NCBI GenBank assembly: GCA_020060805.1
Contig: JAGUZM010000404.1
Coordinates: 1-21,549 of the forward strand
Length of the DNA: 21,549 bases
Reading direction: 5' to 3'
Source: Deltaproteobacteria bacterium
Lineage (GTDB): Bacteria; Desulfobacterota; DSM-4660; Desulfatiglandales; HGW-15
Part shown: positions 5,148 through 21,549 of the stretch, one piece after another
Layout: each line of letters starts with the position of its first letter
Position numbering within the stretch: position 1 is the stretch's first letter
Translations under genes and position numbers: made by a program
Notes under the pieces: model-generated
Told to the model about the DNA's origin: nothing
The model's database searches: none
Seen by the model: the letters and a program-made list of their open reading frames with translations, nothing else

Positions 5148-6032
5148 ATGATCAAGGCCAAGGCAAAGATTAAACCCCTCGATATCATCATAGGCATTGC
5201 CCTGGTGGCGGCAGGAGCGTATGTCACGCACCGGGTCATCGCGGACCTCAACTACAGGTGGGACTGGGCCGCGATACCCCAGTATCTCCTCCGTTACGAC
5301 GAGGAGGAGGGAGGCTGGGTCCCCAACATGCTCCTCCAGGGGCTTTTCATGACCATCAGGCTGAGCGTTTGGGGAACGATTCTCGCCACCCTGATCGGAA
5401 TCGCGATGGGCCTCCTCCGCGTGAGCCGGAGGCTTTTCGGCAGGCTCGTGGCCAGGACCTACGTGGAGGTGATGCGCAACACCCCGCCTCTGGTGCTCAT
5501 CTTCCTGTTCTATTATTTCTTGAGCGGTCAGATCATGACGGTTCTGGGGATCGATACGATCCTGACCGGCCTGTCCGAAGACACGAAGTTCGTCCTCTCC
5601 CTTCTGTTTGGGTCGCCATCCCGATTCTCCGCCTTCACCTCCGCCCTGATTACCCTGGCTATTTTTGAGAGCGCCTACATTACCGAGATCGTCAGGGCGG
5701 GAATCCAGTCGATTGAAAGAGGGGTGTGGGAGGCGGGCTATTCCCTCGGGCTGTCTCGGTGGCAGCTCATGAGACGGGTGATTCTGCCTCTGGCAACGCA
5801 ACGGATCATTCCTCCCCTGGCAGGCCAGTTCATATCCACGATCAAGGATTCCGCGATCGTGTCTGTCATTTCAATCCAGGAGCTGACCTTTCAGGGTATG
5901 GAACTGACGGCCGCCACCTATCTCACCTTCGAGGTGTGGATCACCGTGACCCTCTTGTACCTCGTCCTAACCCTTTCCCTCTCCGTTACCCTGGGTCGGG
6001 TCGAGAAATATCTGAGAAGGAGTGAAGCCTGA
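5148..6032 (+). CDS. Amino-acid ABC transporter permease (second subunit, paralog of 3295..4119)
   Basis: MRNTPPLVLIFLFYYF and the EAA loop EAGYSLGLSRWQLMRRVILPLA are present. It shows clear paralogy with the first permease over its full length. Confidence 0.9.
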   Translation: MIKAKAKIKPLDIIIGIALVAAGAYVTHRVIADLNYRWDWAAIPQYLLRYDEEEGGWVPNMLLQGLFMTIRLSVWGTILATLIGIAMGLLRVSRRLFGRLVARTYVEVMRNTPPLVLIFLFYYFLSGQIMTVLGIDTILTGLSEDTKFVLSLLFGSPSRFSAFTSALITLAIFESAYITEIVRAGIQSIERGVWEAGYSLGLSRWQLMRRVILPLATQRIIPPLAGQFISTIKDSAIVSVISIQELTFQGMELTAATYLTFEVWITVTLLYLVLTLSLSVTLGRVEKYLRRSEA

Positions 6033-8077: not shown

Positions 8078-8608
8078 TCACATCGGGACGAAGCTGTTGG
8101 CCTGAAAATAATCCTCCTTGAGCAACTGAAGCTGGTTCTTGAAGGCTTTGTAATGGTCCTCTTCCCAGGCTGCCAGCTCATGGTAGAAAGCCTTCACATC
8201 CGGGGAGTCCGCTTTGTCGGCACAGGACCTGTAGAACTTCATGGCGTCCTGTTCCAGCTTCATGCCGATGGTGAGGGCGCTCACCTCGAAATGGCTGCTC
8301 TTGATTCGGGATTCGATCTCCTTGCTGAAAATCGGGCCGACGCCGTGCTTGCGGGAGCTTTTTTTCAATTTCTTTTTCAAATCATAGTCCCCGGTGTCAA
8401 GCACAGACCGGTACTGATGCTGCAGGTAATGGAGGTGCCCCATTTCTTCCTGGGCCATTTTCGCAAAGGTCGCCTTTCCCTTCGGGTCCTTGGTGCTTTT
8501 GGCTGCGCTTTTATAGAACTCATGGCCCGTCAACTCCGCTTCAATCGCTGTCTTCAGGCCATCCAGAATTTTCTTTTTGCTCCTTTCCATGGTCAGCTCC
8601 TTGTTCAT
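8078..8608 (-). CDS. Ferritin-like / rubrerythrin-family diiron protein (no rubredoxin domain)
   Basis: Four helix motifs carry the E / ExxH ligand pattern: EAELTGHEFY, QEEMGHLHYL, KLEQDAMKFY, AWEEDHYKAF. Length is 176 aa. Confidence 0.8.
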   Translation of the reverse strand: MNKELTMERSKKKILDGLKTAIEAELTGHEFYKSAAKSTKDPKGKATFAKMAQEEMGHLHYLQHQYRSVLDTGDYDLKKKLKKSSRKHGVGPIFSKEIESRIKSSHFEVSALTIGMKLEQDAMKFYRSCADKADSPDVKAFYHELAAWEEDHYKAFKNQLQLLKEDYFQANSFVPM

Positions 8609-8759
8609 TCATCATCCCGTTTCGGGAGAGAGAAAACCTTTCTTACCCGGAAATGGGCTTTCGGCCCAGGGTTTTTTCGGGCAAGGGCATGACAGCGGAG
8701 GCTTCTCCAATCGCGCCCCTGCCCTTCACCGTCCTCCCCTCCGGCGATCGGAGTTATCC

Positions 8760-9092
8760 TTAAGAAAACTTCTCAGGCGGTCGCCGCTCGGGAACATATT
8801 GAATCGGGGTTTTTCCTTCATTCCACGCCTTCGAGACATAGAGATTGCAATAACAGCTCCCGAACTCCTTCACATCAGGCACCCGGTAGACGCAAGGGCA
8901 GATGATGTCCTGGTCTTTTAGACGGTCTCCTGACGAGAGCCTGCAAGGGCAACACATATACCCATAGCGTTTCCTGTTTTCGATCAACGAGGCCAGGAGG
9001 TCAAAAACCCTTTCCCTGTCTTTGTTGAAATAATAGCCCTTCGGTTCCTGAACCTTTTTCAGGTTCTCATACAGTTTCTCCACCTCGTTCAT
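8760..9092 (-). CDS. Ferredoxin:thioredoxin reductase catalytic (beta) subunit-like protein
   Basis: The Cys pattern CCPCR-x14-CPC-x13-CYC is the FTR catalytic-chain CPC...CPC...C(H/Y)C arrangement. Length is 110 aa. The start overlaps the upstream gene's stop (ATGA). Confidence 0.85.
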   Translation of the reverse strand: MNEVEKLYENLKKVQEPKGYYFNKDRERVFDLLASLIENRKRYGYMCCPCRLSSGDRLKDQDIICPCVYRVPDVKEFGSCYCNLYVSKAWNEGKTPIQYVPERRPPEKFS

Positions 9093-9340
9093 AGTCCGAG
9101 AGCCTCCTTGATCTCTTTCTCCTTGAAGCCCACGATGACCTTATCACCGATGATGATGGTGGGAAAAGAACACCGGGGGTTCAGTTTCCTCACGTCCTCC
9201 AGGATGGCGGTCCTCTCTTCGCCCTCGAGCATATCCACGTCCGTGAATTCGTACTTGACGGCGCATTCGTCCAGGAATTTCTTGGTCGCCTTGCAGTGAC
9301 TGCATGTGCTCAGCGTGTACATCTTGATGCTTTCTTTCAT
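9089..9340 (-). CDS. Glutaredoxin-like / small thioredoxin-fold protein (CSHC active site)
   Basis: The sequence is MKESIKMYTLSTCSHCKATKKFLDECAVKYEFTDVD...CSFPTIIIGDKVIVGF, which has the Grx/NrdH-like topology. The ATG at 9340 is preceded by AAAGGAG. The track ORF's N-terminal extension to 9427 overlaps the upstream gene and is rejected. Confidence 0.8.
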   Translation of the reverse strand: MKESIKMYTLSTCSHCKATKKFLDECAVKYEFTDVDMLEGEERTAILEDVRKLNPRCSFPTIIIGDKVIVGFKEKEIKEALGL

Positions 9341-9359
9341 CAGCGTCGCTCCTTTCTCG

Positions 9360-10193
9360 TCAGGCTTCGCCTTCCATGAGGCGACCCAGGGATGCAAGAT
9401 GCCTCTTTTCTTCTTCCCCAAGGTCATGAAAGACGGCCTTGCTACGATGGTCTTGGCTTTTCCGTGAATAACGCAGGTAGAGATCGAGGGCCTGGGTTTC
9501 GAGCATCATGGCGATACCCAGGACGTTTTCCCTAGTATTCATCGCTTCCTTATTCTGCTCCATGAACTCCTCGGTCGTGAATCCCCCTTCCATGAGTTTC
9601 GAAACGATGCGGGTTTCGAACTGCCCCTGATCCGTTACGGTCCTATCGAGGGTCTGATACAGGTTGAAGAGCTTTTGGCGGTGATTCTCTTCGATGCCGG
9701 CCAACCGTTTCAGAAGGCTTTTTACCTCTGGCTGAGGGGTGGTTTCCGCGATCGCGGTATACCACTCAGACAACCCGGTCTCCATGCCGTATGCAAGAAC
9801 CACCACCTCCGGCGGCTTTTCATCTCCCTTCAGGTAGGCCATTCCCATTTCCGCTGGGCCGAAGGCTGTTCGGCCCTGCCAGGCGGTAATGCCCCCTTTG
9901 AGGTTGTACACTTCCTTGAAGCCCTCACCGGCCAGGAGTTGCGCAGCAGCACGGCTGCGCGCGCCGGTGGCTCAGTACGCAATCACGGGTTTCTGGGGAT
10001 CGAGTTCCCCATTACGGTTGAGGAGCTCCGGCAAGGGGATCAAAACGGCCCCCGGGATGTGCGACTTTTCGTATTCAGAAGGCTGGCGAACGTCAAGAAG
10101 GGAATAGGTTCCTTCTTTGTGTGTATTGATGTAGGTTTTCGCCTCTTCGGCGTTCATGGTGTTGACGGGTGTGAAAAATTTCAACCACTTCAC
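9360..10193 (-). CDS. Rhodanese-domain sulfurtransferase fused to a ferritin-like domain; probable selenoprotein with UGA (9974-9972) at the catalytic Cys position
   Basis: Track ORFs 9972..10193 and 9360..9911 are in the same frame, separated only by one TGA. The read-through translation is ...LDPQKPVIAY-U-ATGARSRAAAQLLAGEGFKEVYNLKGGITAWQG. This is the rhodanese active-site loop (Y-C-x-x-G-x-R-S) with TGA in place of Cys. The C-terminal half carries E/ExxH motifs: YGMETGLSEWY, IEENHRQKL, MLETQALDLY, EEEKRHLASL. The GTG start at 10193 is preceded by AAGGGG 8 nt upstream. Confidence 0.75.
9928..9967 (-). promoter_or_regulatory. Candidate bacterial SECIS stem-loop downstream of the in-frame UGA
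   Basis: The minus-strand RNA is UGA GCCA CCGGC GC GCGCAGC-CGUGCU-GCUGCGC AACUCCUG GCCGG. It has a 7-bp apical stem with a 6-nt loop containing GU at about +23/+24 from the U of UGA, plus a 5-bp outer stem (CCGGC/GCCGG). Confidence 0.5.
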
Positions 10194-10640
10194 GACAGCA
10201 ACCCCTTGGCGTTCAATCGGTCATCGCCCCAGAACCTACTATGGGACGCCTGAAATCTCAAGCAAAACGTGGGCGAGGAAAGGGCGTTTCCTTTGGCGTG
10301 CCCGGTTTTGAAAATCAAGCAGCAATATAATCACTGGATCAGCGCCTACAACCCCTTCTGCTTAAACCCGGGGGAGTGGGCTGCGACCGATCGAGGGATA
10401 CCTTGTCAACCGCCCTGGCGGGGTTTAATATAGGGAAAGAATTAGCCCGGATCTTCGGTCCCACCAGCAGTACGGGGGATCCAGCTGCGAAGCTTGTCCA
10501 ATAACTCCCTCCTTAGAGGGAGAGGGGATTTGGGTTGTCGGGCAGCCTCCGTAACGTCCTTCGAGCGGTAAGGGGGCGCTGGGATCGCACCGGGGAAGCC
10601 CCGACAGAACCGATGATGCGGTGGGGAGGTGAATCATCTC

Positions 10641-11522
10641 ATGGAAAAAGTGGTCATAGAGGGAGTGGAACTGCACCTGACGCAGCCGGATGACGTTCCC
10701 ATGGTTTGGGTCGGCCAGGATGAGCTTGTCACCCAGGTCCTGGCAGCATGGCTCGTCATCGGCGACGATGATTTGCCCCTCCATCCGAGGCTCGTTGGAA
10801 AACCGGGCGTCGGCAAAACCACCCTGGCCTACCATGCGGGCCGTAAGCTCGGGAAACCGGTGTACCTTTACCAGGCGACGATGGACACGCGGCCGGAGGA
10901 CCTCATCGTGACCCCGGTGATCTCGGAAGCGGGCAAGATCAAGTACATGGCAAGCCCCATCGTTTCAGCCATGATCAAAGGGGGTGTGGCGGTCATCGAC
11001 GAAGGAAACAGGATGAGCGAGAAAAGCTGGGCCTCCCTCGCGCCGCTGATGGACAGCAGGCGCTACGTGGAATCCGTCGTTGCAGGAATCAAGATCAAAG
11101 CCCATCCCGAGTTCAGGCTCTGCACAACCATGAACGATGACGCCAGCACCTTTGAGCTTCCGGATTACATCCATTCGAGGCTCCAGCCGCAGATCTTCAT
11201 CGACTTTCCGGAAAGGGATGAAGAACTCCTCATCCTCAGGGCCAATCTGCCCTTTGCCGAGGAGGGGGTCCTGCAGTACGTGGTGGATTTTCTGCAGGCT
11301 GCCCATGAAATGGATGAGCGCTATTCGGTCAGGGACGGGATCAACATCGCCCGGTACGCCTTGAAAAGGCTTGTGGAGAGCGGCGAACGCCTCACCTCCC
11401 AGGAGCGGACGGAGAGGGTCGTTCAGTACATGAAAGAGGCTGCCACGATGATCCTGGATCCCAACGCCGCCCGGTATTTCAAGGACACGGTGGACTCCGG
11501 CGATGACGAAGAACAGGATTGA
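10641..11522 (+). CDS. AAA+ ATPase of the AAA_5 class (MoxR / CbbQ-NorQ / McrB-like)
   Basis: Walker A is GKPGVGKTT and Walker B is VAVIDEGNR. The sensor region is LCTTMN, and an arginine-rich helical lid follows. I prefer the ATG at 10641, with GGGGAGG 11 nt upstream. The track starts at GTG 10629. Confidence 0.85.
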   Translation: MEKVVIEGVELHLTQPDDVPMVWVGQDELVTQVLAAWLVIGDDDLPLHPRLVGKPGVGKTTLAYHAGRKLGKPVYLYQATMDTRPEDLIVTPVISEAGKIKYMASPIVSAMIKGGVAVIDEGNRMSEKSWASLAPLMDSRRYVESVVAGIKIKAHPEFRLCTTMNDDASTFELPDYIHSRLQPQIFIDFPERDEELLILRANLPFAEEGVLQYVVDFLQAAHEMDERYSVRDGINIARYALKRLVESGERLTSQERTERVVQYMKEAATMILDPNAARYFKDTVDSGDDEEQD

Positions 11523-13332
11523 GTGGAAAAACATCCGCTTTGTGCCTGTCCTTCACGGGCGGATGGAATTGGCCCTGGAGGTGAGGAGACAGTTCCGGGA
11601 GTTCAAGCCCGACCAAGTGGCGGTGGAATACCCCCATACCCTGCAGGACCAGATCCTTCGAGGAGTCAAGAGACTCCCCCTTCTCTCCGTTGTCTATTAT
11701 CAGGAGAGCGACGGCGCCTTCATTTACCTCCTTCTGGAGCCGACAGATCCGCTGGTGGAGGCTGTCAGGCTCGCCCTGGAAAACAACGTTCCGGTTCACT
11801 TCGTAGACCGGGACACGGAAGGCTATCCCCTTGATCGGTCCCCTATGCCTGACCCGTATGCGATCACCCGCATCGGTCATTACCTCTTCTGCCAGGCTTA
11901 CCTCAAGACCCGGGAGGGCGAGATGCCGTTCCTGGAAGACTCCCTCCGGGAGAAGACGATGGCCTACCATCTCCAGCGGCTGAACAGAGCAGGGGGGAAG
12001 ACCCTTTTCGTGGGCGGCCTGTACCACCTCCCCGGGATTCTTTCCAACATCGAAGGGCCCCAGGCGGAGGTAATCGGCAGGAAGCACAGGGAAGGGGCTG
12101 GACTGGCCCATCTACATCAGGACTCCAGCGCGGAAGTGTTGACAGAAATGCCCTTTCTGGTGGCAAGGTATGAGCGCTTCAGGGGTGCAGGGGGCGCGGA
12201 AGACCCTGACAGGCTCAAGGTTCATAACGAACTCATCGGCCTTGCCCGCAGGAGCCACTGGAAGAACAACAAAGAGGAATTATCCCGCCTTCAGGTCAGG
12301 ATCATGCACAAGTTTGCCAGGAACTATGCCCTTGTCACGGGCGGGCTGGTGCCCAGTTTCTACCAGCTCCTCGTGGCTGCCCGGGGAGCTGCGGATGACA
12401 ATTTTGCGTATGAACTTTGGGAAAAGGGGAGCGAATACCCGTGGCAGGCAGAGCAGCCCGGGCTGCCCATCATGCGCCTCAGCGGTGAGGATCTTTTCCT
12501 CGACCAGAAAAGGATACGATTCCACCGGAGGCTGAAGGCCTTCCGCAGGCGCCTGGTTCCGGTTCCCGTGAAGAAGAGGATAAGGGAGAAGACCCCGGGG
12601 GAATGGAAGAAAAGCTTCGACCACCTCTTCATCTGCTCTTATCCGCCCGAGGACGTGGTCGTGGAGGGTTACGGCCAATACCTCCAGAAAAAGGCCCTGG
12701 AGATCAAGTCTGAGGAGAACAGCCGGAGCGTTCCTTTTGTCAGTTCCATGATGGATGGGATCGATATCCGGGAGACCGTCAGGAACTGGGCCGAAGCGAA
12801 GATCTACGTGAAGGAGGGGAGGCCTATCCGGGGGAAGGTGGGATCCGTGGTCATGATTTTTGACCCTGACATGGCGGGAAAGGACGGGAAGGAAAATTTT
12901 CCCTGGAAGGTCACCTGGCTCGGTGAGCACGAACAGGAATCAGACATGGCTTTTTACAGCACCCCGGCCGGCGGCGTCATGGACGGGCCGGGTATTTCCC
13001 GGTGCCAGTACGGAGGCTTCATGCTCACCTATCCTCCGCTGAGGGTTTTGGATATATGGCAGGATCCCTTTTTCAACGTGGCGAGGAATAAACCGGAAAG
13101 GCTTCTCATGGCCGCCATAGACTACAGCGCGGAAAAACATGTGGTCTACGTCGCAGCCGACCCTCCCTCGGGATGGTGCCAGACCATGGCCGCGAAGCTG
13201 GGAAAGAAGATCATCTACATGCCCATCGGCGTTTTTTCTCCCGTGGCTCTGAAAAAGATCCGCCAGTTCCACGTCCTTGCCGGCCACCACGTCCGCAGGT
13301 ACGCCAAGCAGTACATCAAAACCGCCTCATGA
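11503..13332 (+). CDS. Large uncharacterised protein, DUF5682-like (partner of AAA_5 ATPases)
   Basis: 609-aa ORF whose ATG overlaps the ATPase gene's end by 20 nt, implying translational coupling. The N-terminus is IRFVPVLHGRMELALEVRRQFREFKPDQVAVEYP...EPTDPLVEAVRLALENNVPVHFVDRD. That resembles, from memory, the start of DUF5682 proteins found next to MoxR-like ATPases. The family call is tentative. Confidence 0.7.
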   Translation: MTKNRIEWKNIRFVPVLHGRMELALEVRRQFREFKPDQVAVEYPHTLQDQILRGVKRLPLLSVVYYQESDGAFIYLLLEPTDPLVEAVRLALENNVPVHFVDRDTEGYPLDRSPMPDPYAITRIGHYLFCQAYLKTREGEMPFLEDSLREKTMAYHLQRLNRAGGKTLFVGGLYHLPGILSNIEGPQAEVIGRKHREGAGLAHLHQDSSAEVLTEMPFLVARYERFRGAGGAEDPDRLKVHNELIGLARRSHWKNNKEELSRLQVRIMHKFARNYALVTGGLVPSFYQLLVAARGAADDNFAYELWEKGSEYPWQAEQPGLPIMRLSGEDLFLDQKRIRFHRRLKAFRRRLVPVPVKKRIREKTPGEWKKSFDHLFICSYPPEDVVVEGYGQYLQKKALEIKSEENSRSVPFVSSMMDGIDIRETVRNWAEAKIYVKEGRPIRGKVGSVVMIFDPDMAGKDGKENFPWKVTWLGEHEQESDMAFYSTPAGGVMDGPGISRCQYGGFMLTYPPLRVLDIWQDPFFNVARNKPERLLMAAIDYSAEKHVVYVAADPPSGWCQTMAAKLGKKIIYMPIGVFSPVALKKIRQFHVLAGHHVRRYAKQYIKTAS

Positions 13333-13349
13333 GCGGCGAAGTGTCCTGT

Positions 13350-13393
13350 CAAAAGTAGTGAGGTTTGCGAACAAAAGTAGTGAGGTTTGCGAA
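13350..13393 (+). repeat. Two perfect tandem 22-bp repeats (CAAAAGTAGTGAGGTTTGCGAA x2): putative transposase end-binding sites
   Basis: Copies at 13350-13371 and 13372-13393 are identical. They are immediately preceded by TGT at 13347. The 22-bp length, head-to-tail arrangement and ..TGCGAA(A/C)AAA core recall MuA/TnsB end sites. Confidence 0.7.
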
Positions 13394-13464
13394 AAGCACA
13401 GGAAATAAAAATCCTGTCCGATTTGGAGTTCAATCGGTCAGGTTTTGAGCCTCTGAAAAGGCCA

Positions 13465-13953
13465 TCAAACTACGGCATTAGAACCCCTTTCTGCCTGTAG
13501 ATGAGTCTTCAAAACGTAAAGGATCTGGACCTCCAAAGGCCTCATTTCTTCTTCACTGAGCGCCCGGATCTGGGCGAAAAGATCAGGATAAAGCTTAAAG
13601 TTTATGATTACCTCCAAATCGGGCCGTGGCTGCATTTTCTCAGGGCGGTCCTTACTAACCTTCACCTTTTTCCCTGTTCCCCTGGAGGCCAACGTCTTGC
13701 GCTTTAAGCGCATGCACTCGGAACACAAACGGTGCGAAGGAGTGATCGTCTGCCGTTGCTCGCACTCTTCACATAATCTGACCGGCTTCTCCTCCATATT
13801 GCTTTGCCCTCGTCTTAGTTCAACCACAAACGGATCTTCTTCACGCTCTCTTTCTACTCTCTCCCCACAGCTTTCGCATCTTAGTGACCTTGTTCTTCCA
13901 TGAACCAATCTACTCAGGCAGGCCGAATAGTGAACACACTCAGGATCGCGCAT
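13465..13953 (-). CDS. Double zinc-ribbon protein with C-terminal ribbon-helix-helix-like region (putative DNA/RNA-binding regulator)
   Basis: There are two Cys4 clusters: C-x5-C-x13-C-x2-C and CEEC-x12-CSEC. The C-terminus DLEVIINFKLYPDLFAQIRALSEEEMRPLEVQILYVLKTHL has a beta-alpha-alpha RHH-like pattern. It is the last gene before the element end. The start is uncertain (ATG 13953, or the internal MEEKP Met). Confidence 0.6.
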   Translation of the reverse strand: MRDPECVHYSACLSRLVHGRTRSLRCESCGERVEREREEDPFVVELRRGQSNMEEKPVRLCEECEQRQTITPSHRLCSECMRLKRKTLASRGTGKKVKVSKDRPEKMQPRPDLEVIINFKLYPDLFAQIRALSEEEMRPLEVQILYVLKTHLQAERGSNAVV

Positions 13954-13976
13954 TTCAAAAGACTCGGCAAATCGAA

Positions 13977-15875
13977 CTAGACCAACTTAGCCTCCCTCAA
14001 CTCTACCAATATCCGGCTGCGACCATATTTGATTGCGCTGGCGAGGCCTTCATCGATTCGGCGTATAAGGTCTTCACTGCCTCCACCGGCGATATTAATG
14101 CTTCCAACGTCGAAATTCAAAATCATCCCGGCTGCCCCGCGCCCCATAGCCGCACCGCCGCTCACACCCTTCAGAACTTCGAACTGGGCTTCAAGAAGTT
14201 GCTTGCTTAGACCGTAGGCCTCTTTTTCTCCAGCGCCCGCATACATCCTGTAAGTCGTCACGTCGGTGAGAGGCCCGAAATCCCTGATCGCCCTGATCGT
14301 CGCCTGCATCGATGCTGTGAGGCTCGCTACTCCGGTAAGGTCGAGGGCATCCTGTATGACGCCACCTACACCCCGAAGGTCGTCCATCATTTCCTGTATC
14401 CCCACGGCCCAGGGCTTTGCAGGAGATTTCTTAATTTGAGGCTCGAACACGAAAGGATTCCGGCCCTCCTCCGCCGCCATGTAGTCAAAAAATTGGGCTG
14501 TACTCTGTGTCGCCTGAGCGATGCTCTCGCTTGCGTTTTGAGCAGCCTCCTGGATCGAATTGATAGTATCGACCACCTTCTCAGCGGCTGCCGAATAAGA
14601 TCCAGGCTGTGAAATAGGCATTCTCACAAAAGGACCTCCGGTCTCCGATGTGCTTTCTATCCCAGAAAGAAGCCTCTTCAGTTCAGGGAAATTGGAAAAC
14701 GCATACTCGCTCAAGCTCAGCTTTCCTGCCGCTACCGCCTGTGCTCCCTTGACCGAATTCTGTACTGCCTCGATGAGATGAAGTCCTGCTCCAAAAACAG
14801 CAAGCCCTTTTTTGCCGAATACGATTGCTGCTACAACTCCTCCCTCCTGAATCCACCCAGGAAGCGATTGAAACGTTTTATAAAGCTCTTCGCCTTTCGT
14901 TATTATTTTCGGCAGATACCTATCCGCGATGTCCGCCAATGAACCCACCGTCCTCACCAATCCCTTCGCCAAATCCAAGATCTCGTCAGCAGTCTTTTTT
15001 GCCCACTCTTGAAGTTTCCCTTCCGAATGAAGTTTATCCACCCGATCCACAACGCCTGCGAGGAAGGTTTCTAGTGACTTCATGACACCGGATTTCATCA
15101 CGAGGCGCTCAAACTCAGTCCAGTAGCTTTTGAGGCTCTCGGTCATTCCCGACCACGTCTTTTGTATCTTCTCTGACTGTCCACCGTAACGCTCCTGCAG
15201 ACCTTCGAATATTGCCTGCACTGCCGCCTTTGCGTTCAGGCTCGACGTCTCCACCTCGCCGAATTTCTTTTTTAGAATGTCGAACACCGGGACACCACGC
15301 TCTGCGAGCTGCATCAGCTCTTCTGCGCTCACCTTTCCTTTCGTGGCAATTTGCGCGAGAGCCCTGGCGATGCCCTGTAAAGTCTCTTCCGTGCCGCCCA
15401 ATGCGCTCATCGTATCGACAAGAATCGTCATCTGCTTAGTGGTTGGATCAAGCCCCATCGCCTTCATCATGATGAAGGTCTCAACCGCCTTCTGGGTATT
15501 CACAGGCATTTTGAGAGCCCACTCATTTAGCATCCTGAAGGTTTCTTCACCTTTCCCTTTTGTAAGAGTGTCAAGGCTGAGCGTCATCTTGTCGAACGAA
15601 GCAGCCGTGTTTACAAAACCAGAGGCAATCCGTTCTAGACGCCATCCCACAAAGGCCGTGGCCGCTATAGTTTTAAGGTTCACAAGCGACTTCCTGACTT
15701 CGCCGATCCTGCCCTTCACACCATCAAAGAGATTCTGGACCCGTTGCAGCCCAGGAGCGGCGCTTGTCCCGACCCCGGAAAGGTTCTTCGATGCGCCGTC
15801 GGTAAACTTCTTGATGTCAGCAAGGGCCTTGTCCACAGCGGCTTTCACGATGATCTCGACCGTATTCTCAGGCAT
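13977..15875 (-). CDS. Phage tail tape-measure protein
   Basis: 632 aa, Ala/Gly/Gln-rich and helical. The N-terminal tape-measure core is FDKMTLSLDTL...EETFRMLNEWALKMPVNTQKAVETFIMMKAMGLDP...TLQGIARALAQIATKGKVSAEELMQLAERGVPVFDILKKKFG. The SD GGGAGGA precedes the ATG. Confidence 0.8.
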   Translation of the reverse strand: MPENTVEIIVKAAVDKALADIKKFTDGASKNLSGVGTSAAPGLQRVQNLFDGVKGRIGEVRKSLVNLKTIAATAFVGWRLERIASGFVNTAASFDKMTLSLDTLTKGKGEETFRMLNEWALKMPVNTQKAVETFIMMKAMGLDPTTKQMTILVDTMSALGGTEETLQGIARALAQIATKGKVSAEELMQLAERGVPVFDILKKKFGEVETSSLNAKAAVQAIFEGLQERYGGQSEKIQKTWSGMTESLKSYWTEFERLVMKSGVMKSLETFLAGVVDRVDKLHSEGKLQEWAKKTADEILDLAKGLVRTVGSLADIADRYLPKIITKGEELYKTFQSLPGWIQEGGVVAAIVFGKKGLAVFGAGLHLIEAVQNSVKGAQAVAAGKLSLSEYAFSNFPELKRLLSGIESTSETGGPFVRMPISQPGSYSAAAEKVVDTINSIQEAAQNASESIAQATQSTAQFFDYMAAEEGRNPFVFEPQIKKSPAKPWAVGIQEMMDDLRGVGGVIQDALDLTGVASLTASMQATIRAIRDFGPLTDVTTYRMYAGAGEKEAYGLSKQLLEAQFEVLKGVSGGAAMGRGAAGMILNFDVGSINIAGGGSEDLIRRIDEGLASAIKYGRSRILVELREAKLV

Positions 15876-15901
15876 CTTTTATCCTCCCCTTCTTCCCTCA
15901 T

Positions 15902-16267
15902 TCAGAGTGGCTTGTAACATCCTCTCACCCTTCTTCTCATGCACAGGCTACAGATATACCACTCGTTATTAAGCTCTTGCCCATCCATAATTCCGAGCAT
16001 CTCAAAAGCCCATCTATCCGCCGCCAACTCTTCCGCCTCATCTGGCCCATCGAACTTGTTAATGAGAACGTGCTTTATTTCGTGGAACAGAACGAAAAAA
16101 GCTAAATATGGGCACTTCAGGTTGTGTGGAGAGATGAGGATTCGGAAACTGCCGTCGCGGAATCTGTGCGCTTCCCCGGCATGATTGTTTTCTAGGTCGC
16201 AGACCATCACGTATCTGATACTTTGGCAATGGTCTTTTGCAATAGAAGTCAGGAAGTCATTTATCAT
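15902..16267 (-). CDS. Small HExxH zinc-metallopeptidase-like protein (ImmA/IrrE M78-like or SprT-like; family ambiguous)
   Basis: FVLFHEIKHVL is followed by EAEELAADRWAFEML, which is like the HExxH...E-x-x-A-N-x-F-A motif of ImmA/IrrE. The C-terminal Y-x-C-x-x-C is also seen in SprT-like proteins. Confidence 0.6.
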   Translation of the reverse strand: MINDFLTSIAKDHCQSIRYVMVCDLENNHAGEAHRFRDGSFRILISPHNLKCPYLAFFVLFHEIKHVLINKFDGPDEAEELAADRWAFEMLGIMDGQELNNEWYICSLCMRRRVRGCYKPL

Positions 16268-16350
16268 CGATCACCCTTTCTTTGTAGAAGGAGGGCCTGA
16301 GCGGGAAAGAAGGAGGAAACCCGCTCAGGCCAGCACATGGCTGCGACGTG

Positions 16351-17526
16351 CTATGAGACCACGGACTTGTAAGCTGATCGGTATTCGACCAAGGCTCCTT
16401 GATACTCGTGCCTGACCTTGTAGAGCCACGCATCCCCTTTAAATGCAGCCTCGCTCAGTGAGTCATCAACGATGATTTCCGGTTCCTCTCGCCCGTTCAG
16501 ATAAGACATTTCGATGCAACCGACATCCTCAACAGGGCGAATGATGCCCCAATCATTCGTGTCGCTTAAGAAGGAGATGATTGCGATTCGCTCATTCTTC
16601 TCCCCGAAGAGGCCGCGAACTGAGTTTATGGTTTTGGTTGTCAGATCATTTCCCGTGTAATAAGAATCGAGTTGGTTGACGCGCACAGCCGTATCCCAGA
16701 GTGAAAGCGGCACAGCAAGCCACCATTTGCCGCCGAGATTGATCCCTATCTTTTCGTTGCTCGGCGAACCCTCGGTCATGTCGCCCAAGGCGCCAACACC
16801 CGTAACCACGGCTGCGATTGAAAGCGCCCCAGATCCAAGGTTCCCATGCCCTCCGGTAAACCAGGCCGTTCCATCCGAACAATTTGCGTTGGAGGTGAAA
16901 AAACTCCAAACGTGTTTAGCATGCGTCCTTCTAGCAGCCCTCGCTACACGGTTAAGGAGTGCTCGCACAAGCCCGATGTTCTCGTTTATCATGCATATTC
17001 TTGTAATCTTAATAACCAGGCCTCGGGTAGTGATTGAGTAGGAAGCCTGTTCATCCCCAAAAGGCGCTATTGCGCCATAATCAGCCGCTTCCGGGTCAAC
17101 GGTCGGGATATCGCTCAAATATCCGAACCTCACAGCCTTAATGCTTCTGAAGTCTTTAGCGGATCGCTTTAAGCCGATCAGGGCGGCCTCATGGAAATCA
17201 ATATCAGCGTACTCTTTGGCCAACCCGACGTGGAGAGCGTTTTGCAATGCGTAGTCAAAGCTGGAGGAGTTGAAATCCTGGCATGATCGAAGATCCGCGT
17301 CCACCCGGTTTGAGTAGAATAACCCCCGCATTTCTACGTCGCCGGTGAAAAACTCATACGCAGGCCGCAAACCAGCGAAGGCAGGTATACCGTTGGAATC
17401 GAACCAGGGATTAATGAGCTTGGTGAGAGCTGCCCTGGCTTTGTCGAGCGCCGTCCGGCCCACTTCGAGCGATGAGTAATACACAGTCCGTTCAATGTCC
17501 CTCAAAAGTTTTTCCTTGCTGTCCAT
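16351..17526 (-). CDS. Putative HK97-fold major capsid protein
   Basis: 391 aa with the SD AGGAGG. The central segment SITTRGLVIKITRICMINENIGLVRALLNRVARAARRTHAKHVWSFF resembles the beta-strand plus long 'spine helix' region of phage major capsid proteins (gpT/HK97-like). It lies upstream of the tape measure in phage-like order. The call rests on pattern recognition only. Confidence 0.6.
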   Translation of the reverse strand: MDSKEKLLRDIERTVYYSSLEVGRTALDKARAALTKLINPWFDSNGIPAFAGLRPAYEFFTGDVEMRGLFYSNRVDADLRSCQDFNSSSFDYALQNALHVGLAKEYADIDFHEAALIGLKRSAKDFRSIKAVRFGYLSDIPTVDPEAADYGAIAPFGDEQASYSITTRGLVIKITRICMINENIGLVRALLNRVARAARRTHAKHVWSFFTSNANCSDGTAWFTGGHGNLGSGALSIAAVVTGVGALGDMTEGSPSNEKIGINLGGKWWLAVPLSLWDTAVRVNQLDSYYTGNDLTTKTINSVRGLFGEKNERIAIISFLSDTNDWGIIRPVEDVGCIEMSYLNGREEPEIIVDDSLSEAAFKGDAWLYKVRHEYQGALVEYRSAYKSVVS

Positions 17527-17578
17527 TTTAGTCCTCCTGCGTGGCCTACAAACCGACCACGGTGATATTTAATGTCAC

Positions 17579-17890
17579 TTATTGCTTCGCTTGATCGGCC
17601 CTAGCTTCACCGGATATTCGCACAGGCTCGGATCTCGCCTCCGCATCCCTCGGCCTTCTTTGGCCCAACTTTGAATCCCAGATCATTTCCTGCTTTGGGG
17701 GAATGCCCGTTTTCTGAACGTCTGTTAACTTGACAGATGCAGGCGCTCCCTTCTTATGGCGGATCTTTGCCCCTCCGTGCGTAACGATCACGATTTCGCC
17801 TGTAGTCTCATCAAACCTTTGAGCGAATACATGTTCCTCTCGAAGGCCATAGACCTTCAGCGTCTCTTGGAATCCTTTTTCATCTCTCAT
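17579..17890 (-). CDS. Hypothetical protein (103 aa), basic C-terminal tail
   Basis: The ORF starts 5 nt after the upstream stop and is co-directional within the element. No recognisable motif. Confidence 0.5.
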   Translation of the reverse strand: MRDEKGFQETLKVYGLREEHVFAQRFDETTGEIVIVTHGGAKIRHKKGAPASVKLTDVQKTGIPPKQEMIWDSKLGQRRPRDAEARSEPVRISGEARADQAKQ

Positions 17891-17895
17891 TTTCC

Positions 17896-18162
17896 CTATA
17901 CCCCCTCGATCTCAAATTTGATGGTGTATTCTCGTCCTCTCGCTGTCATGAACTGAAGAATTGCCATCCGGTTCAGCATGAGTATCTCTCCACGTTTCCC
18001 CATTACGTTGTATTCGATCGTAATCCCTTTTCGTAAATCAACATCCAGCCGGATAGGATACGATTTCTTAATGCCATTAGTGGTAACGTGCAAAATCGCC
18101 CTCGGGTAAGAGTCAAGAAGCGCCAGAATCTCCTCCAATTCTGTTTGCGTATACTCGTCCAT
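17896..18162 (-). CDS. Hypothetical protein (88 aa from ATG 18162)
   Basis: The track ORF starts at TTG 18186. I prefer the ATG at 18162, preceded by GGGAGGAAG. It lies immediately downstream of the structured spacer. No recognisable motif. Confidence 0.5.
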   Translation of the reverse strand: MDEYTQTELEEILALLDSYPRAILHVTTNGIKKSYPIRLDVDLRKGITIEYNVMGKRGEILMLNRMAILQFMTARGREYTIKFEIEGV

Positions 18163-18177
18163 CTTCCTCCCAACAAA

Positions 18178-18283
18178 AAAGCCCAATTGTGCGTGAGATC
18201 CCCTTCGGGGACTTCCTGAGAACCCCTCCGAGGATTTTCTGAGATCCTGCCCAAGGACCTCATGACCGCAACAATTGGGCTTT
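18178..18283 (-). ncRNA. Structured intergenic RNA element / attenuator-terminator candidate inside the element
   Basis: A 13-bp helix pairs AAAGCCCAATTGT (18178-18190) with ACAATTGGGCTTT (18271-18283), plus GCG/CGC across a bulged A. It encloses ~75 nt containing a TCCCC-TTC-GGGGA hairpin (18199-18211), an AGGAT/ATCCT hairpin (18231-18248) and a repeated TGAGATCC. On the minus strand the 3' arm runs straight into UUUUUUGUU and then the SD and ATG of the next gene. Confidence 0.45.
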
Positions 18284-18347
18284 ACTTTACGACTAAACTA
18301 CCCGGCAACTGCAGACCGTCAGCTACCGACCACAACACAGTTAAACT

Positions 18348-18572
18348 TTACTCGCGACCATGTCCCTCCACTTCCGCGACCATGTCCCTCCACTTCTGAA
18401 GTTCTGAGACTATGCCGGTGAACTCCCACAAAAACCAGCTTGCCTCTCTGTTCGCTTTCATGACCCGCTTATAGTCGAACAATGGAATGCTATCCACTTT
18501 TGCACGCAACTCATCTAACCACGCGGGATTGACATACCTAAATTTCTCGCCTCTGGGCCTCTTCGTTTTCAT
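18348..18572 (-). CDS. Hypothetical protein (74 aa)
   Basis: A strong SD, AAGGAGGTGA, lies 5 nt upstream of the ATG at 18572. The last 15 codons are encoded by the 22-bp tandem duplication. Confidence 0.55.
   Translation of the reverse strand: MKTKRPRGEKFRYVNPAWLDELRAKVDSIPLFDYKRVMKANREASWFLWEFTGIVSELQKWRDMVAEVEGHGRE
18353..18396. repeat. Perfect tandem duplication, 2 x 22 bp (CGCGACCATGTCCCTCCACTTC)
   Basis: Copies at 18353-18374 and 18375-18396 are identical. Because 22 is not a multiple of 3, the two copies are read in different frames: KWRDMVA and then EVEGHGR. Confidence 0.9.
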
Positions 18573-18576
18573 ATTA

Positions 18577-19038
18577 TCACCTCCTTTCTTTTCGATTTTT
18601 CCAGCTCTCCAGCACCGGGTGTTCCAAGGGGGCTTTCTCAGGCTCGATCAGGATATAGCAGCCCTCGCTATACTTCCGTGAAGTCGAGATAGATCTAATG
18701 ATCCCCTTTTGCTCCAAGAACCGTAAGTATTTGTGAGCATGGCTTCTAGAAGCACCGCTCAAAAGCACGAGATCTCTCCAGGTAAACCGACCCTTGATTA
18801 TGATCGCCCGCCACATTTTTTCGGTCATGGAGAAGGGGCGTTGTCTCATCTTGTATCGGAAAATCCCCGGCTGGACGGAAACGATCTCGCCGGTCTTCTT
18901 TAAGCCTTTCAAACCGCCCTTGAGCCTCGCCTTTTCAGCATAGCTACGGATGCAGAGGCGGTCAGCGAGATCATGGATCGTGAACTGAACCAACTCGACG
19001 GCTGCCTCTCGAATTTGTTTAGCGAGCTTCTGCCCCAT
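18577..19038 (-). CDS. Putative winged-helix DNA-binding protein (153 aa)
   Basis: There are two wHTH-like segments: FTIHDLADRLCIRSYAEKARLKGGLKGLKKTGEIV and FTWRDLVLLSGASRSHAHKYLRFLEQKGII. The start overlaps the ATPase gene's stop (TAATG). The assignment is weak. Confidence 0.55.
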   Translation of the reverse strand: MGQKLAKQIREAAVELVQFTIHDLADRLCIRSYAEKARLKGGLKGLKKTGEIVSVQPGIFRYKMRQRPFSMTEKMWRAIIIKGRFTWRDLVLLSGASRSHAHKYLRFLEQKGIIRSISTSRKYSEGCYILIEPEKAPLEHPVLESWKNRKERR

Positions 19039-19814
19039 TACGCAACCGCCGCCAACGCTGGTTTTTGATCGCTTCCGCCGTTCAGGATCTCCCCCAACTG
19101 CTCAGGATTCGGCATGCCCTTTGTAACCTCTTTGACCATCTTCGTGCTCACTTCGGCTTTGTTGTTTATTAGACACACCTTTTCGAGACGAACCAATAAA
19201 GCATTCACCAGCCTGAAGTCCCCCAAGGTGATTGTTCTGATCAAGCCTCCCACTTCGGCGTCACACTTCAACCCGCAGAGTTCTTTGGCAATGCCCTGAA
19301 TGTCTTTAGCGCTCAGCGGAGAAAACTCAACGGCTTCCGTGATCCGTGAAAAGAAGTTCCCCAACTCGTTTCTCTGCAAGCTGTTATAGATGCTTTCCTG
19401 GCCGACCAAAACAATCGGGACTTTGCTGATATCCGCAAGGTCTCGAACGGTCTCAACGAGAAGAGATTTGCGAACCACCCTGTCAGCCTCGTCTATAAAG
19501 AACACCACGCCGTGCTTTCGAAGTGTTCGGACAAGCTCCCTCAAATTCTCTTTAACGGTCCTGACCGGCTGAACTCGAAAGGCTAAAAGCATGTCTTCAA
19601 GCATCATACACAGCGACCGGGTCCAAGCTGCGACCGCCCGGCAGTGGAAACTTGGATAGTTGGAACAATACCACTCCGTGAAAGAGCTTTTCCCTAATCC
19701 GGGCCGCCCATAGAGAAGGCCTATGCGGTCAATGCGAGAACCTTTGTCAATCAAGGCTTTGACCATCATGAAAGCCTTACTTACGCTCTCAGTCATCACG
19801 AATTTGTCACGCAT
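19038..19814 (-). CDS. AAA+ transposition ATPase (MuB / TniB / TnsC-like)
   Basis: Walker A is GRPGLGKSS and Walker B is VFFIDEADR. Size is 258 aa. It lies immediately downstream of the DDE transposase and overlaps it by 8 nt. Confidence 0.85.
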   Translation of the reverse strand: MRDKFVMTESVSKAFMMVKALIDKGSRIDRIGLLYGRPGLGKSSFTEWYCSNYPSFHCRAVAAWTRSLCMMLEDMLLAFRVQPVRTVKENLRELVRTLRKHGVVFFIDEADRVVRKSLLVETVRDLADISKVPIVLVGQESIYNSLQRNELGNFFSRITEAVEFSPLSAKDIQGIAKELCGLKCDAEVGGLIRTITLGDFRLVNALLVRLEKVCLINNKAEVSTKMVKEVTKGMPNPEQLGEILNGGSDQKPALAAVA

Positions 19815-21549
19815 TTGCTGCCTCCTCGTCCAATTGGCGTTGCAGATTTTGGGCGATCAGAGAATAGTGATCGTCCTCCTCAAAGGTCTTCATAAATCGG
19901 TGATCATCCAGGCTGAGGACTTCGCCATTCCTCTTCCTCCTCAAAAGCCATGCGTATTTTTCGTCTTGCTCTAGAAAGAGGCCTGATCCTTGCTCCTCAA
20001 CGGTCTTGATAGGTTCATGCAGGTTCGGCACTTCCACAACCTCAAATCTTTGCGGGAACACAAGAGGCTTCTTTTTCTTCGCGGCTTCGATCTGATTCAC
20101 GATCCCTGCCCCGGAAATATCATACTTGCTCAAAAGAGCCTTGTTGGTCTCTATCGTGGCGCGAAGCTCTTTAGCCCGTTGGCGCTTCGCAATCTTGATC
20201 TCTTTGGGAGTGAGATCGCGCCGAGTCATATCCTCAGCCCGACAAACACGTTTCCCCTTAAAATAAACGAGCACGGACGATGCATCGTTATCGTCAATTC
20301 TGAGCACAACCCTGCTTCCTTCTGGGGGCAGCTTCCGATGGAAATATCTACCACCTTCATACATCACACATCCTCTGCGGACTATGCGTTCCTCTTCAGG
20401 CAGGATAAGAATATCCAGGTCCTCTTTATTGATTGTTCTCGCGATGAATCCGAGCTTCGCAAATCGTGCACGTGGTTTCTCCCCTGTCGAAGAATGAACC
20501 GTCTCGGCATATTTAAATGTAACCCAGTCATCGATCAGCTTCTGTAATTCCTCCCTTGAATATTCGACTTTGATTTCCTTTGGCCTATTGGCAAGAGTGT
20601 TCCCTGTGTATCCCGGAAGTCTCCTGAAAAGCCCTTCAGTCAAGGTCCGAAAAGCCCTTTCAATAAAGGGTTTCTCGACGGGTTGCCCGGGATGACAGAG
20701 ATGGTGCTTGGTCCCGACATGTTTAAAAAAGCCGCGAACGCGATTGCTTTTGAAACTTTTTCCCTGATCCGTCCTCGCAACCCCCGGAATGCCCCAACAG
20801 AGGATTGTATCTCTCAAAAAAACAGCCACGGAAAATGCGCTTTCCGGCATAAGCCGAAAACGAACTAGCCGGGAATAGACATCGATGCCGCCAATGATCT
20901 GAGACCGTTTTCCATCATTGGTCATAATGACGCAGTCCTCTTGTTGCCGTTCGGTCAATATATCCGCAAGGGTCGAATCAAGCTCCCATAACTGATTCGG
21001 TTCCGTTAGATTAGCATCCGCACACCCGAGAGCAGGTGTCATACTCCGATCACGCAGACCTTCTTGCCCCTCATGTTTCAGGATCAGGGCGGGAAAATTT
21101 TCTGCTCGGTAGTGCTTAGCGTAGTTTCGGACCTGGAAATATGAAGGCTGATCTTTTGCAGGAAGAAGAAGGCGGAGATCATCGTGGATATCTTGGAAGC
21201 GAATTTTGTAATTGTCCCAGATCAACTTCTCAATGAACCCGCGAACCTGCTCCGAAAGCTTGCAACCCCCATTATTGAAGCCCTCCAGGAGGCCATCTAA
21301 TCCGTTTTCTCGGTAAGCAGACTGCCAGCGATATAGAGTGGATTGACTGATCTTTGGTTTTCTTAGCCGAGCCCGGATCTCTTCGCCTAGAAATCCTTTG
21401 TTAAATTGGTGCAGAAATCTCTTCGCGATCTCCGTTCGTTTCAGGTCCTTCTTGTATTCTCGCTCGAAGGATTCAAATAAATGAAGAAGCTCGCTCTTCG
21501 CCTTTGCATATTCCCGATTTTGTTCTGAACTACCGTCCCATTTATTCAT
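19807..21549 (-). CDS. DDE transposase of the Mu A / TnsB / Tn552 (rve + Mu-transposase C-terminal) superfamily; the ATG coincides with the last window base, so the 5' end may be incomplete
   Basis: An N-terminal HTH is present (ISQSTLYRWQSAYRENGLDGL). The catalytic contexts are LWELDST (D), ARTDQGKSFKS (D) and PVEKPFIERAF (E). The downstream beta-barrel-like region ILILPEEERIVRRGCVMYEGGRYF is typical of the Mu-transposase C domain. Confidence 0.9.
   Translation of the reverse strand: MNKWDGSSEQNREYAKAKSELLHLFESFEREYKKDLKRTEIAKRFLHQFNKGFLGEEIRARLRKPKISQSTLYRWQSAYRENGLDGLLEGFNNGGCKLSEQVRGFIEKLIWDNYKIRFQDIHDDLRLLLPAKDQPSYFQVRNYAKHYRAENFPALILKHEGQEGLRDRSMTPALGCADANLTEPNQLWELDSTLADILTERQQEDCVIMTNDGKRSQIIGGIDVYSRLVRFRLMPESAFSVAVFLRDTILCWGIPGVARTDQGKSFKSNRVRGFFKHVGTKHHLCHPGQPVEKPFIERAFRTLTEGLFRRLPGYTGNTLANRPKEIKVEYSREELQKLIDDWVTFKYAETVHSSTGEKPRARFAKLGFIARTINKEDLDILILPEEERIVRRGCVMYEGGRYFHRKLPPEGSRVVLRIDDNDASSVLVYFKGKRVCRAEDMTRRDLTPKEIKIAKRQRAKELRATIETNKALLSKYDISGAGIVNQIEAAKKKKPLVFPQRFEVVEVPNLHEPIKTVEEQGSGLFLEQDEKYAWLLRRKRNGEVLSLDDHRFMKTFEEDDHYSLIAQNLQRQLDEEAANA

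Follow-up and report, generated by a model that had tools for sequence, protein, structure and literature searches.

Do phage satellites exist that move by Mu-type transposition rather than with an integrase? This question is raised by one end of a DNA stretch of 21,549 nt from a Deltaproteobacteria bacterium (forward strand of contig JAGUZM010000404.1, assembly GCA_020060805.1; the whole stretch is referred to as the window), in which a first-pass annotation had described a miniature Mu-like element. Of this compact Mu-type transposable element the window covers the distal 8.2 kb. Comparison with its relatives shows that it is a member of a conserved lineage, and we lean slightly towards the view that it is a helper-dependent phage satellite that moves by transposition; the satellite behaviour itself, that is induction by a helper and packaging, is something that we infer from the sequences.

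A compact Mu-type element with its own capsid gene

Inspection of the open reading frames (ORFs) in the window revealed an array of ten, all co-directional on the minus strand (13465-21549, Table 1). They are tightly coupled, as the first-pass annotation had stated: the reading frames of the transposase (A) and the ATPase (B) overlap by 8 nt at 19807-19814, base 19038 is common to B and the next ORF of 153 amino acids (aa), and the remaining intergenic gaps measure 4-83 nt, plus one spacer of 185 nt between p74 and p88 (18163-18347, counted from the p88 ATG). No frame breaks were seen in the window ORFs and the catalytic residues given below are invariant, which agrees with the earlier description of the genes as intact and not decayed.

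The array finishes at 13347, where a TG is located (13347-13348). Next to it, two exact copies of the 22-bp sequence CAAAAGTAGTGAGGTTTGCGAA abut each other (13350-13371 and 13372-13393). Such exact 22-bp repeats are not expected by chance (0 in 100 shuffles), and the two copies probably represent R1/R2 transposase-binding sites. At the element boundary the G/C content shifts from ~0.58 to ~0.51, and left of 13347 lies an ordinary anaerobe chromosome with genes for a multihaem cytochrome, an ABC transporter, MatE and rubrerythrins. On the other side, the window edge coincides with the ATG of the transposase gene, which is the last codon in the window; beyond it, and thus out of view, lie the other terminus of this copy and its target-site duplication.

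Table 1. Location of the features in the window, followed by copies with host genes on both flanks and by repeats at left ends of related elements (positions in the respective loci)
Feature	Position or length	Strand	Match or remark
MuA-type DDE transposase (A), 580 aa	19807..21549	-	phrog_310, rve, Mu-transpos_C
MuB-like AAA+ transposition ATPase (B), 258 aa	19038..19814	-	phrog_296, 3e-37; AAA_22; TniB
Winged helix-turn-helix (wHTH) DNA-binding protein, 153 aa	18577..19038	-	phrog_2030 transcriptional regulator, 2e-9; wHTH hints
p74, small early ORF, 74 aa	18348..18572	-	no family match; exact copy on contig L180
Structured terminator-like spacer between early genes (A, B, wHTH, p74) and late genes (p88-p162)	18187..18347	-	RNA folding
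p88, small ORF (96 aa if TTG at 18186 is the start)	17896..18162	-	no family match
p103, conserved small protein, 103 aa	17579..17890	-	no family match; jackhmmer
HK97-fold major capsid protein, 391 aa	16351..17526	-	PF25209 Phage_capsid_4, 7e-21
HExxH metallopeptidase (ImmA/IrrE, M78-like), 121 aa	15902..16267	-	weak Peptidase_M78; phrog_87 metalloprotease
Tape measure protein (TMP), 632 aa, in variable accessory slot	13977..15875	-	TMP_3, 2e-17; phrog_973, 6e-38
p162, Zn-ribbon/ribbon-helix-helix (RHH)-like, 162 aa	13465..13953	-	Zn-ribbon hints in profile searches
Distal (right) terminus	13347..13393	-	reads ...(TTCGCAAACCTCACTACTTTTG)x2-ACA-3' in element orientation
Bounded copy L001	9004 bp		between RRM gene and ribonucleotide reductase
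Bounded copy L005	9114 bp		TG...CA ends; between MCP gene and SMC
Bounded copy L108	~9015 bp		
Bounded copy L124	~9010 bp		
Bounded copy L126	~9120 bp		
Bounded copy L013	~12.8 kb		
Bounded copy L010	13,632 bp		TG...CA ends; 17/24 terminal positions matching; exact 5-bp duplication GCATG
GGGAT[GA]A repeats, left end of L001	3437-3530		
GGGAT[GA]A repeats, left end of L005	2909-2960		
GGGAT[GA]A repeats, left end of L013	855-940		
GGGAT[GA]A repeats, left end of L107	1-70		
GGGAT[GA]A repeats, left end of L124	3514-3600		
GGGAT[GA]A repeats, left end of L126	135-220		

The transposase matches phrog_310 across residues 2-578 with an E-value of 4e-67 and in addition the Pfam families PF00665 (rve) and PF09299 (Mu-transpos_C); its residues D191, D261 and E297 are invariant in an alignment of 16 homologues. 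Likewise, the Walker A motif of the ATPase, G-x-x-G-x-G-K, is invariant in the homologue alignment. Homologues of the wHTH protein are located directly after B in 12 related loci. The matches to phrog_310, phrog_296 and phrog_2030 confirm the earlier identification of these three genes as a transposase, a MuB/TniB-like ATPase and a wHTH-like protein.

The structured spacer that had been noticed downstream of the early genes was confirmed by RNA folding. It can fold into a compound hairpin with a minimum free energy of -71.6 kcal/mol (z = -3.7; 0 of 200 shuffles fold as well), and its closing stem of 13 bp (GCCCAAUUGU...ACAAUUGGGC) is followed by UUUUUU. The spacer looks like a regulated terminator dividing early from late genes. 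A search of the window for Rfam families yielded no match, and a scan of the window for consensus promoters and terminators revealed no enrichment over shuffles.

The 391-aa protein, previously suggested to be an HK97-like capsid protein, has this fold both according to its Pfam match and according to structure prediction. Its AlphaFold2 model (26 homologues, mean pLDDT 86) was compared with the PDB using Foldseek, and the top 50 matches were all HK97-fold capsids or encapsulins with a probability of 1.0, including those of HK97, phage Mu, the P4 procapsid and a gene transfer agent (GTA) capsid. In a large protein collection we found 117 homologues, mostly ~400 aa long and ~50% identical, many of them encoded on contigs of 8-13 kb.

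The small protein p103 has homologues in 61 loci (jackhmmer), in which T37, G39, G40 and G62 are invariant. A conserved domain of ~60 residues is common to the reduced elements and the full-size phages described below, and in both the gene is located immediately upstream of the capsid gene; p103 is probably a head-assembly partner. In the peptidase, H62, E63, H66, E80, C52, C106, C109 and C117 are invariant among 25 homologues. Peptidase_M78 (PF06114) is matched by 18 of these 25 with a best E-value of 2e-5; the window peptidase itself scores 15.2 bits against this model, for which the cutoff is 22. The last gene, p162, encodes two Zn-ribbons, a basic linker and a C-terminal RHH-like domain. 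Four cysteines are invariant in the homologues and the C-terminal pattern IDF...LA.EE.RP..Q.IY.LK is conserved. The family comprises 144 representative clusters in an exhaustive search; a single-sequence word search with p162 gave no match. The AlphaFold2 model of p162 has a pLDDT of 81, and its C-terminus matches RHH proteins only (Arc, CopG, MatP, AmrZ), with non-significant E-values. Searches of PDB sequences with capsid, peptidase and p162 profiles returned nothing useful. Throughout the reduced lineage p162 is the last gene before the right end. It is presumed to be a DNA-binding regulator or a factor that binds the ends or a pac site. The ORF p88 was seen only in the window element and in its exact copy on contig L180.

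Beyond the tape measure gene, Pfam and PHROG profile searches of the window matched no terminase, portal, MuF, protease/scaffold, tail or lysis family, as had been claimed from the reading frames. Integrase genes and satellite marker genes (alpA/primase-rep, sid/psu/delta, head module) were found neither in the window nor in complete relatives.

A reduced lineage and its full-size Mu-like relatives

To place the element among its relatives, contexts were fetched from the capsid homologues and their genes were mapped by iterative hidden Markov model searches. A reduced type, which we call mini, was found in 41 distinct loci plus truncated contigs, mostly from Desulfobacterota metagenome-assembled genomes (MAGs) and anaerobic metagenomes. 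Its gene order is (repressor)-ner-A-B-(wHTH)-(GemA)-small ORFs-p103-unfused capsid of ~395 aa-HExxH peptidase-variable slot-p162-right end. All 41 loci with an unfused capsid carry the peptidase and/or p162, and the signature genes of the mini lineage are p103, the unfused capsid, the HExxH peptidase and p162. In the fetched contexts of the 41 mini loci, terminase, tail and lysis genes are absent; MuF is present in one and a portal-like gene in two of them, plus locus L154. The small ORFs of the complete relatives matched no terminase or portal family, and these relatives carry Ner (HTH_35), HTH_Tnp_Mu_1, Phage-MuB_C and GemA. The reduced gene order recurs at 45-55% protein identity, and the mini copies were found in unrelated host contexts and at many chromosomal sites. 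Scans of genome, metagenome and viral collections yielded no relative of the window element closer than 53% identity.

Copies with host genes on both flanks can be regarded as bounded, and they range from 9.0 to 13.6 kb. A continuation into a complete phage of tens of kb, which would have argued against a small element, is not seen in the homologous elements. Both termini were found in L010, L005, L124, L126 and L107. The right ends of L024, L170, L130, L110 and L010 share the architecture of the window, with two tandem sites followed by ...ACA; the letters at the right ends are TTTTGACA in the window, TTCTTACA in L024, TTCTCACA in L170, GTTTACA in L130, GCTTACA in L110 and CCTTACA in L010. 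At the other end, the left terminus is located 1.2-2.3 kb upstream of the start of A in the relatives, with c/ner-like genes in between, and we therefore predict a total length of ~9.4-10.5 kb for the window element. The ~9-10 kb proposed by the first-pass annotation thus fits both this prediction and the smaller bounded relatives; the left end of the window copy itself was not recovered. This left end is expected to bear inverted GAGGTTTGCGAA-type sites. The closest relative in the early region is L107 (identity of 40% for A and 48% for B), and its contig begins exactly at the TG of the left terminus, 1879 bp upstream of A. Contigs L024 and L170 finish exactly at ...ACA. Such breaks at element termini, three in number, are expected if the flanks differ among cells or particles.

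The left ends of mini elements, and not the right ends, contain three to four repeats of the type GGGAT[GA]A at distances of ~10 bp just inside the terminal binding site (Table 1). They are kept across very divergent copies and could be a signal for packaging (pac), operators of a repressor or additional sites for the transposase. A further observation on the ends comes from L106, a metagenome contig of 9543 bp with a terminal overlap of 102 bp (1-102 and 9442-9543, 94% identity) and a junction at ~5560-5760, at which a right end is joined to a left end within ~150 bp. L106 may represent tandem copies or a circular-looking assembly with a unit of ~9.4 kb.

The content of the variable slot differs among the copies. 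The slot lies either between the peptidase gene and p162 or immediately before the capsid gene, and in the window it is occupied by a TMP_3-type gene, which only this copy has. Other copies encode a different large family of mutually homologous proteins (613-1255 aa) with weak to moderate matches to TMP PHROGs, L009, L013 and L154 have a portal-like gene instead, and in some copies the slot is empty, which results in the core form of 9.0 kb. The TMP was considered as a gene defining the family and rejected on these grounds. The earlier statement that capsid and TMP are the virion genes of the element is correct for the window copy; for the lineage it holds for the capsid and not for the TMP. 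The window TMP is nearest to those of Mu-like siphophages, and its length is normal for this group (541-751 aa): its residues 50-256 are 61% identical to the TMP of the full-size phage contig L029, it shares 58% identity with the TMP of the Mu-like siphophage L184, and the TMP of L034 is 52% identical to its N-terminal part.

The second, full-size type consists of 86 distinct loci with a fused capsid; in 63 of them the fetched flanks contain TerL, portal or MuF. The order here is TerL, portal, MuF, often a p103 homologue, a fused capsid of 730-900 aa and tail genes including a TMP, on contigs of 36-46 kb. In the fused proteins (for instance in L029 at 8606-11029, and in L135 and L017) the capsid makes up the C-terminal third and is preceded by ~460 N-terminal residues, a part that is absent from the window capsid. 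This N-terminal part has no Pfam match and matches only phrog_29592; it may act as a protease, a scaffold or something else. Neither the peptidase nor p162 was found in any of the 86 full-size loci. Members of this type carry Mu Gam, GemA, a MuB-like ATPase, Mu_F, Mu_Gp36 and Phage_tail_S, and the presence of these Mu genes shows that the capsid family belongs to Mu-like transposable phages.

In a simple distance tree of 130 capsid domains (neighbour-joining), the unfused mini capsids, all 41 of them and that of the window included, group in a single clade that contains nothing else. Sister to it is a clade of the full-size type with, among others, L028, L029, L034 and L135, in which TerL, portal, MuF, p103 homologues and the fused capsid are present. 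We conclude from the sequences that the mini lineage descends from full-size Mu-like phages, and the sister clade is a candidate helper pool. Three loci deserve a separate remark. In L029, whose contig was extended by 1.2 kb by exact DNA match, the TMP gene (15984-17308) is split into ORFs of 250 and 188 aa and the phage region stops soon after; the split may be a frameshift or an assembly error. L041 (1749-15225), outside the main mini clade, contains A, B, wHTH and GemA and then a fused capsid of 729 aa, with no terminase or portal gene in between. L154 (573-6003) has an unfused capsid of 377 aa together with a portal-like gene of 488 aa, and the full-size phages with which it groups are different ones. 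Reduced forms may have arisen more than once.

The ratio of non-synonymous to synonymous substitution rates (dN/dS) points to selection on the late genes. Pairwise values for the capsid are 0.08-0.23 (two short partial pairs were left out), for p162 and p103 mostly 0.05-0.5, and for the peptidase mostly 0.13-0.5, with 0.95 in one near-identical pair. Judged by these values, the mini lineage is under purifying selection and is not decaying. The claim that the reduced gene set is conserved across syntenic copies is supported by ~41 loci, a single capsid clade and this selection. Recombination is also visible. L001 and L124 occupy one chromosomal site, and their host flanks and the region repressor-ner-A are 90-94% identical at the DNA level; B through p162 are only 67-78% identical, which indicates that the late module was replaced through recombination with another element. 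In L104 and L106 the capsids are 86% and the transposases only 43% identical, and one MAG holds two different elements with 74% identity of the capsids and 30% of the transposases. From these comparisons the mini lineage is monophyletic, mosaic and present at many chromosomal sites.

A possible satellite that transposes, and the alternatives

The mini elements resemble satellites in general: they are conserved and under selection, are without essential virion and packaging genes, and measure 9-13.6 kb compared with 36-46 kb for the full-size phages. A more specific proposal, which we hold with a little less than even confidence, is that they would be the first satellites with Mu-type DDE transposition. 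They would parasitise full-size Mu-like phages by means of a private truncated capsid, package ~9-10 kb in small heads and thereby solve the headful problem, and use the variable slot to tune which helper part is replaced. A satellite with a DDE/Mu-type transposase was not described in the literature searched, which does not cover all journals, so that within this partial coverage the novelty suggested in the first-pass annotation stands. DDE transposases were not mentioned in the searched papers on capsid-forming phage-inducible chromosomal islands (cf-PICIs), PICMI, PLE, P4, EPIP and jumbo-phage islands.

The following life cycle might be envisaged. The element would be repressed in the chromosome, and MuA and MuB would copy it by transposition. 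Growth of a related full-size Mu-like phage would switch on the late operon p88-p103-capsid-peptidase-TMP-p162 behind the terminator-like spacer, and the helper would supply terminase, portal, scaffold or protease, and the tail. The unfused capsid protein would assemble on the portal and scaffold of the helper into a smaller shell; the headful terminase of the helper would start at the left end of the element, and the shell would be full after ~10 kb. In this way the small shell would avoid the ~30 kb of host flank that come along when an engineered mini-Mu is packaged into a full-size Mu head. The particle would be finished with helper tails, here possibly on the tape measure of the element itself, and in a new cell MuA and MuB would insert the DNA by transposition. 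The near-9.0-kb clustering of divergent copies fits a capacity limit. As a conjecture, the peptidase might cleave a repressor as ImmA does, or replace the lost N-terminal domain in capsid processing, and p162 might bind the ends or late promoters.

Comparison with known systems places the element between Mu-like phages and satellites. As in Mu, D3112, B3 and BcepMu, MuA and MuB lie side by side near one end and the downstream genes are co-directional. Mu-like are also the TG with two tandem sites at the right end of the window element, the TG...CA termini with several transposase-binding sites in relatives, the 5-bp duplication in one relative, the presence of Ner and GemA in relatives, and the homology of capsid, p103 and TMP to those of full-size phages. 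Unlike these phages of 36-46 kb, the mini elements have ~9-14 kb and are devoid of terminase, tail tube, sheath, baseplate, fibres and lysis genes, with MuF or portal-like genes only in rare copies; furthermore, their capsid is unfused and the M78-like peptidase and the Zn-ribbon/RHH protein have been added. Engineered mini-Mu consists of a few kb of Mu ends plus A/B and is packaged headful by heads of a helper Mu. The mini elements share with it the transposition genes, the ends and the proposed dependence on a helper, and mini-Mu shows that such a life cycle is physically feasible. However, engineered mini-Mu elements are laboratory deletions without structural genes, and headful packaging takes up host DNA to the extent of tens of kb; the elements of the natural lineage encode a capsid of their own and have sizes that cluster around 9 kb.

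Among satellites, the cf-PICIs (10.1101/2022.09.08.507074) encode their own HK97 capsid, do not remodel that of the helper, and rely on a helper for the rest of the virion. They have a tyrosine integrase with att sites and the complete head module with portal, protease, connectors and small terminase, and only the tails are taken from the helper. The window element is similar in having a private capsid gene and differs in having the capsid with or without a TMP only, and a DDE transposase. With P4, the classical PICIs/SaPIs and PLE it shares a genome of about one quarter of the helper's, an incomplete virion set and the expected small-capsid strategy. These satellites differ by their integrases, their own replicons (primase/helicase) and the remodelling of the helper capsid by Sid, CpmB or TcaP, and Mu-type transposition was not reported for P4, PICI/SaPI or PLE in the literature searched.

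Several points weigh against a satellite life. Induction, helper dependence and encapsidation enter the proposal by inference, the redirection of capsid size is deduced from genome size as the one line of evidence, and the roles given to the capsid N-terminus, the peptidase, p162 and the TMP are conjectural. In the window copy the left terminus is out of view, and with it any pac site and the target-site duplication. A helper prophage was not found in the same genome, and a scan of a single genome, the MAG with two mini elements, revealed no full-size relative. An exact 5-bp duplication is present in only one of eight bounded relatives (L010, GCATG); this rarity may be due to chimeric flanks in the metagenomes, to rearrangements that followed replicative transposition, or to age. 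Finally, the orthologous site of L001 and L124 shows that some copies are long-term residents.

This last point would also suit the strongest alternative, in which the element is a self-sufficient transposon derived from a Mu-like phage that has kept the late genes to interfere with related infecting phages, by poisoning of head or tail assembly or by decoys, and serves as a defence or exclusion module. Its spread would rest on transposition, with an occasional transfer in other vehicles. Retention by the host is suggested by the long-term insertion in L001 and L124, purifying selection acts on late genes although packaging genes are missing, and the variable slot with its TMP-like and portal-like genes resembles an arms-race locus. 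In addition, known satellites and prophages carry assembly-interference systems (PMC11364771). On the other hand, PADLOC found no defence match besides the TnsB/TnsC-like ones, the tight clustering of divergent copies at ~9.0 kb is easier to explain by a packaging limit, and the spread over unrelated MAGs together with the shuffling of late modules implies horizontal transfer, for which the capsid is the obvious vehicle. We consider this explanation unlikely as a replacement for the satellite reading; an interference role and a satellite life are compatible and do not exclude each other.

The possibility that the element is a Tn7/Tn552/Tn5053-type transposon (TnsB/TniA plus TnsC/TniB) with captured structural cargo of a phage is much less probable. 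It is suggested by the match of the transposase to the TnsB model (8e-21) and of the ATPase to TnsC and TniB models, and a 5-bp duplication is also found with Tn7 and Tn5053. However, the best full-length matches are those to phrog_310 and phrog_296 (MuB), the relatives carry the Mu-type genes Ner, HTH_Tnp_Mu_1, Phage-MuB_C and GemA, and profile searches detected neither TniQ/TnsD nor a resolvase in the window or in complete relatives. Moreover, the order of the supposed cargo is fixed and it is inherited together with the ends across the lineage.

We regard it as highly improbable that the element is an internally deleted, defective Mu-like prophage, a one-off remnant in decay. It is clear that its capsid, p103 and TMP stem from phages of the full-size Mu-like type, and its left end lies outside the window, but the same reduced order occurs in ~41 loci of a single capsid clade, the peptidase and p162 are specific to the lineage, dN/dS is well below 1 and the active sites and frames are intact; an origin of the reduced loci from assembly fragments is contradicted by copies with host genes on both flanks. 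Both this explanation and the Tn552/Tn5053-type transposon had been named as alternatives in the first-pass annotation, and both are contradicted by the conserved lineage and its Mu-specific genes. Equally improbable is a domesticated, non-viral HK97 shell of the encapsulin or GTA kind on a transposon: Foldseek scores for encapsulins and the GTA capsid are similar to those for phage capsids and neither portal nor terminase is encoded, yet the capsid nests among those of phages, next to its full-size Mu-like sister clade, is inherited together with the phage head partner p103 and often also with genes of the TMP-like or portal-like kind, has no encapsulin-family Pfam match and no adjacent cargo enzyme, and is encoded in loci that are bounded by transposon ends and located at varied positions.

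If the satellite reading is true, a MuA/MuB satellite would bring a new principle of mobility and replication into satellite biology. All families in the searched literature (P4-like, PICI/cf-PICI, PLE, PICMI, EPIP and jumbo-phage islands) have an integrase in their descriptions and never a transposase, and since current satellite finders key on integrases, they would miss mini elements. The elements would furthermore be the natural counterpart of laboratory mini-Mu and a natural test of headful packaging against genome size, and the pair of a fused ~800-aa capsid in the helper lineage and an unfused ~395-aa capsid in the mini lineage makes the control of capsid size directly testable. Their insertion is possible at almost any site, and adjacent DNA might be packaged along with them; thus, they could be unrecognised agents of gene transfer and rearrangement in bacteria of anaerobic sediments and digesters.

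Exact copies and neighbouring genes

Exact pieces of the window element were found in one JGI metagenome and in one NCBI MAG. A fragment of the TMP gene identical to that of the window is located at the same insertion site on L178, a 4.6-kb JGI metagenome contig, and an identical MuB is encoded on L180, a 3.5-kb contig that breaks inside A. Exact look-ups of the window transposase and capsid gave no match.

Just past the right ends of several mini elements, at the contig ends of L103, L113 and L129, tRNA-like sequences were observed. They may be there by chance or may reflect a mild preference for insertion near tRNA loci.

In the window, the insertion adjoins a host ORF of 609 aa (11503-13332, plus strand), the stop codon of which is 14 bp away from the element terminus. 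Neither this ORF nor its neighbour of 189 aa (10965-11534, minus strand) has a Pfam match. The 609-aa gene also flanks the identical element in contig L178.

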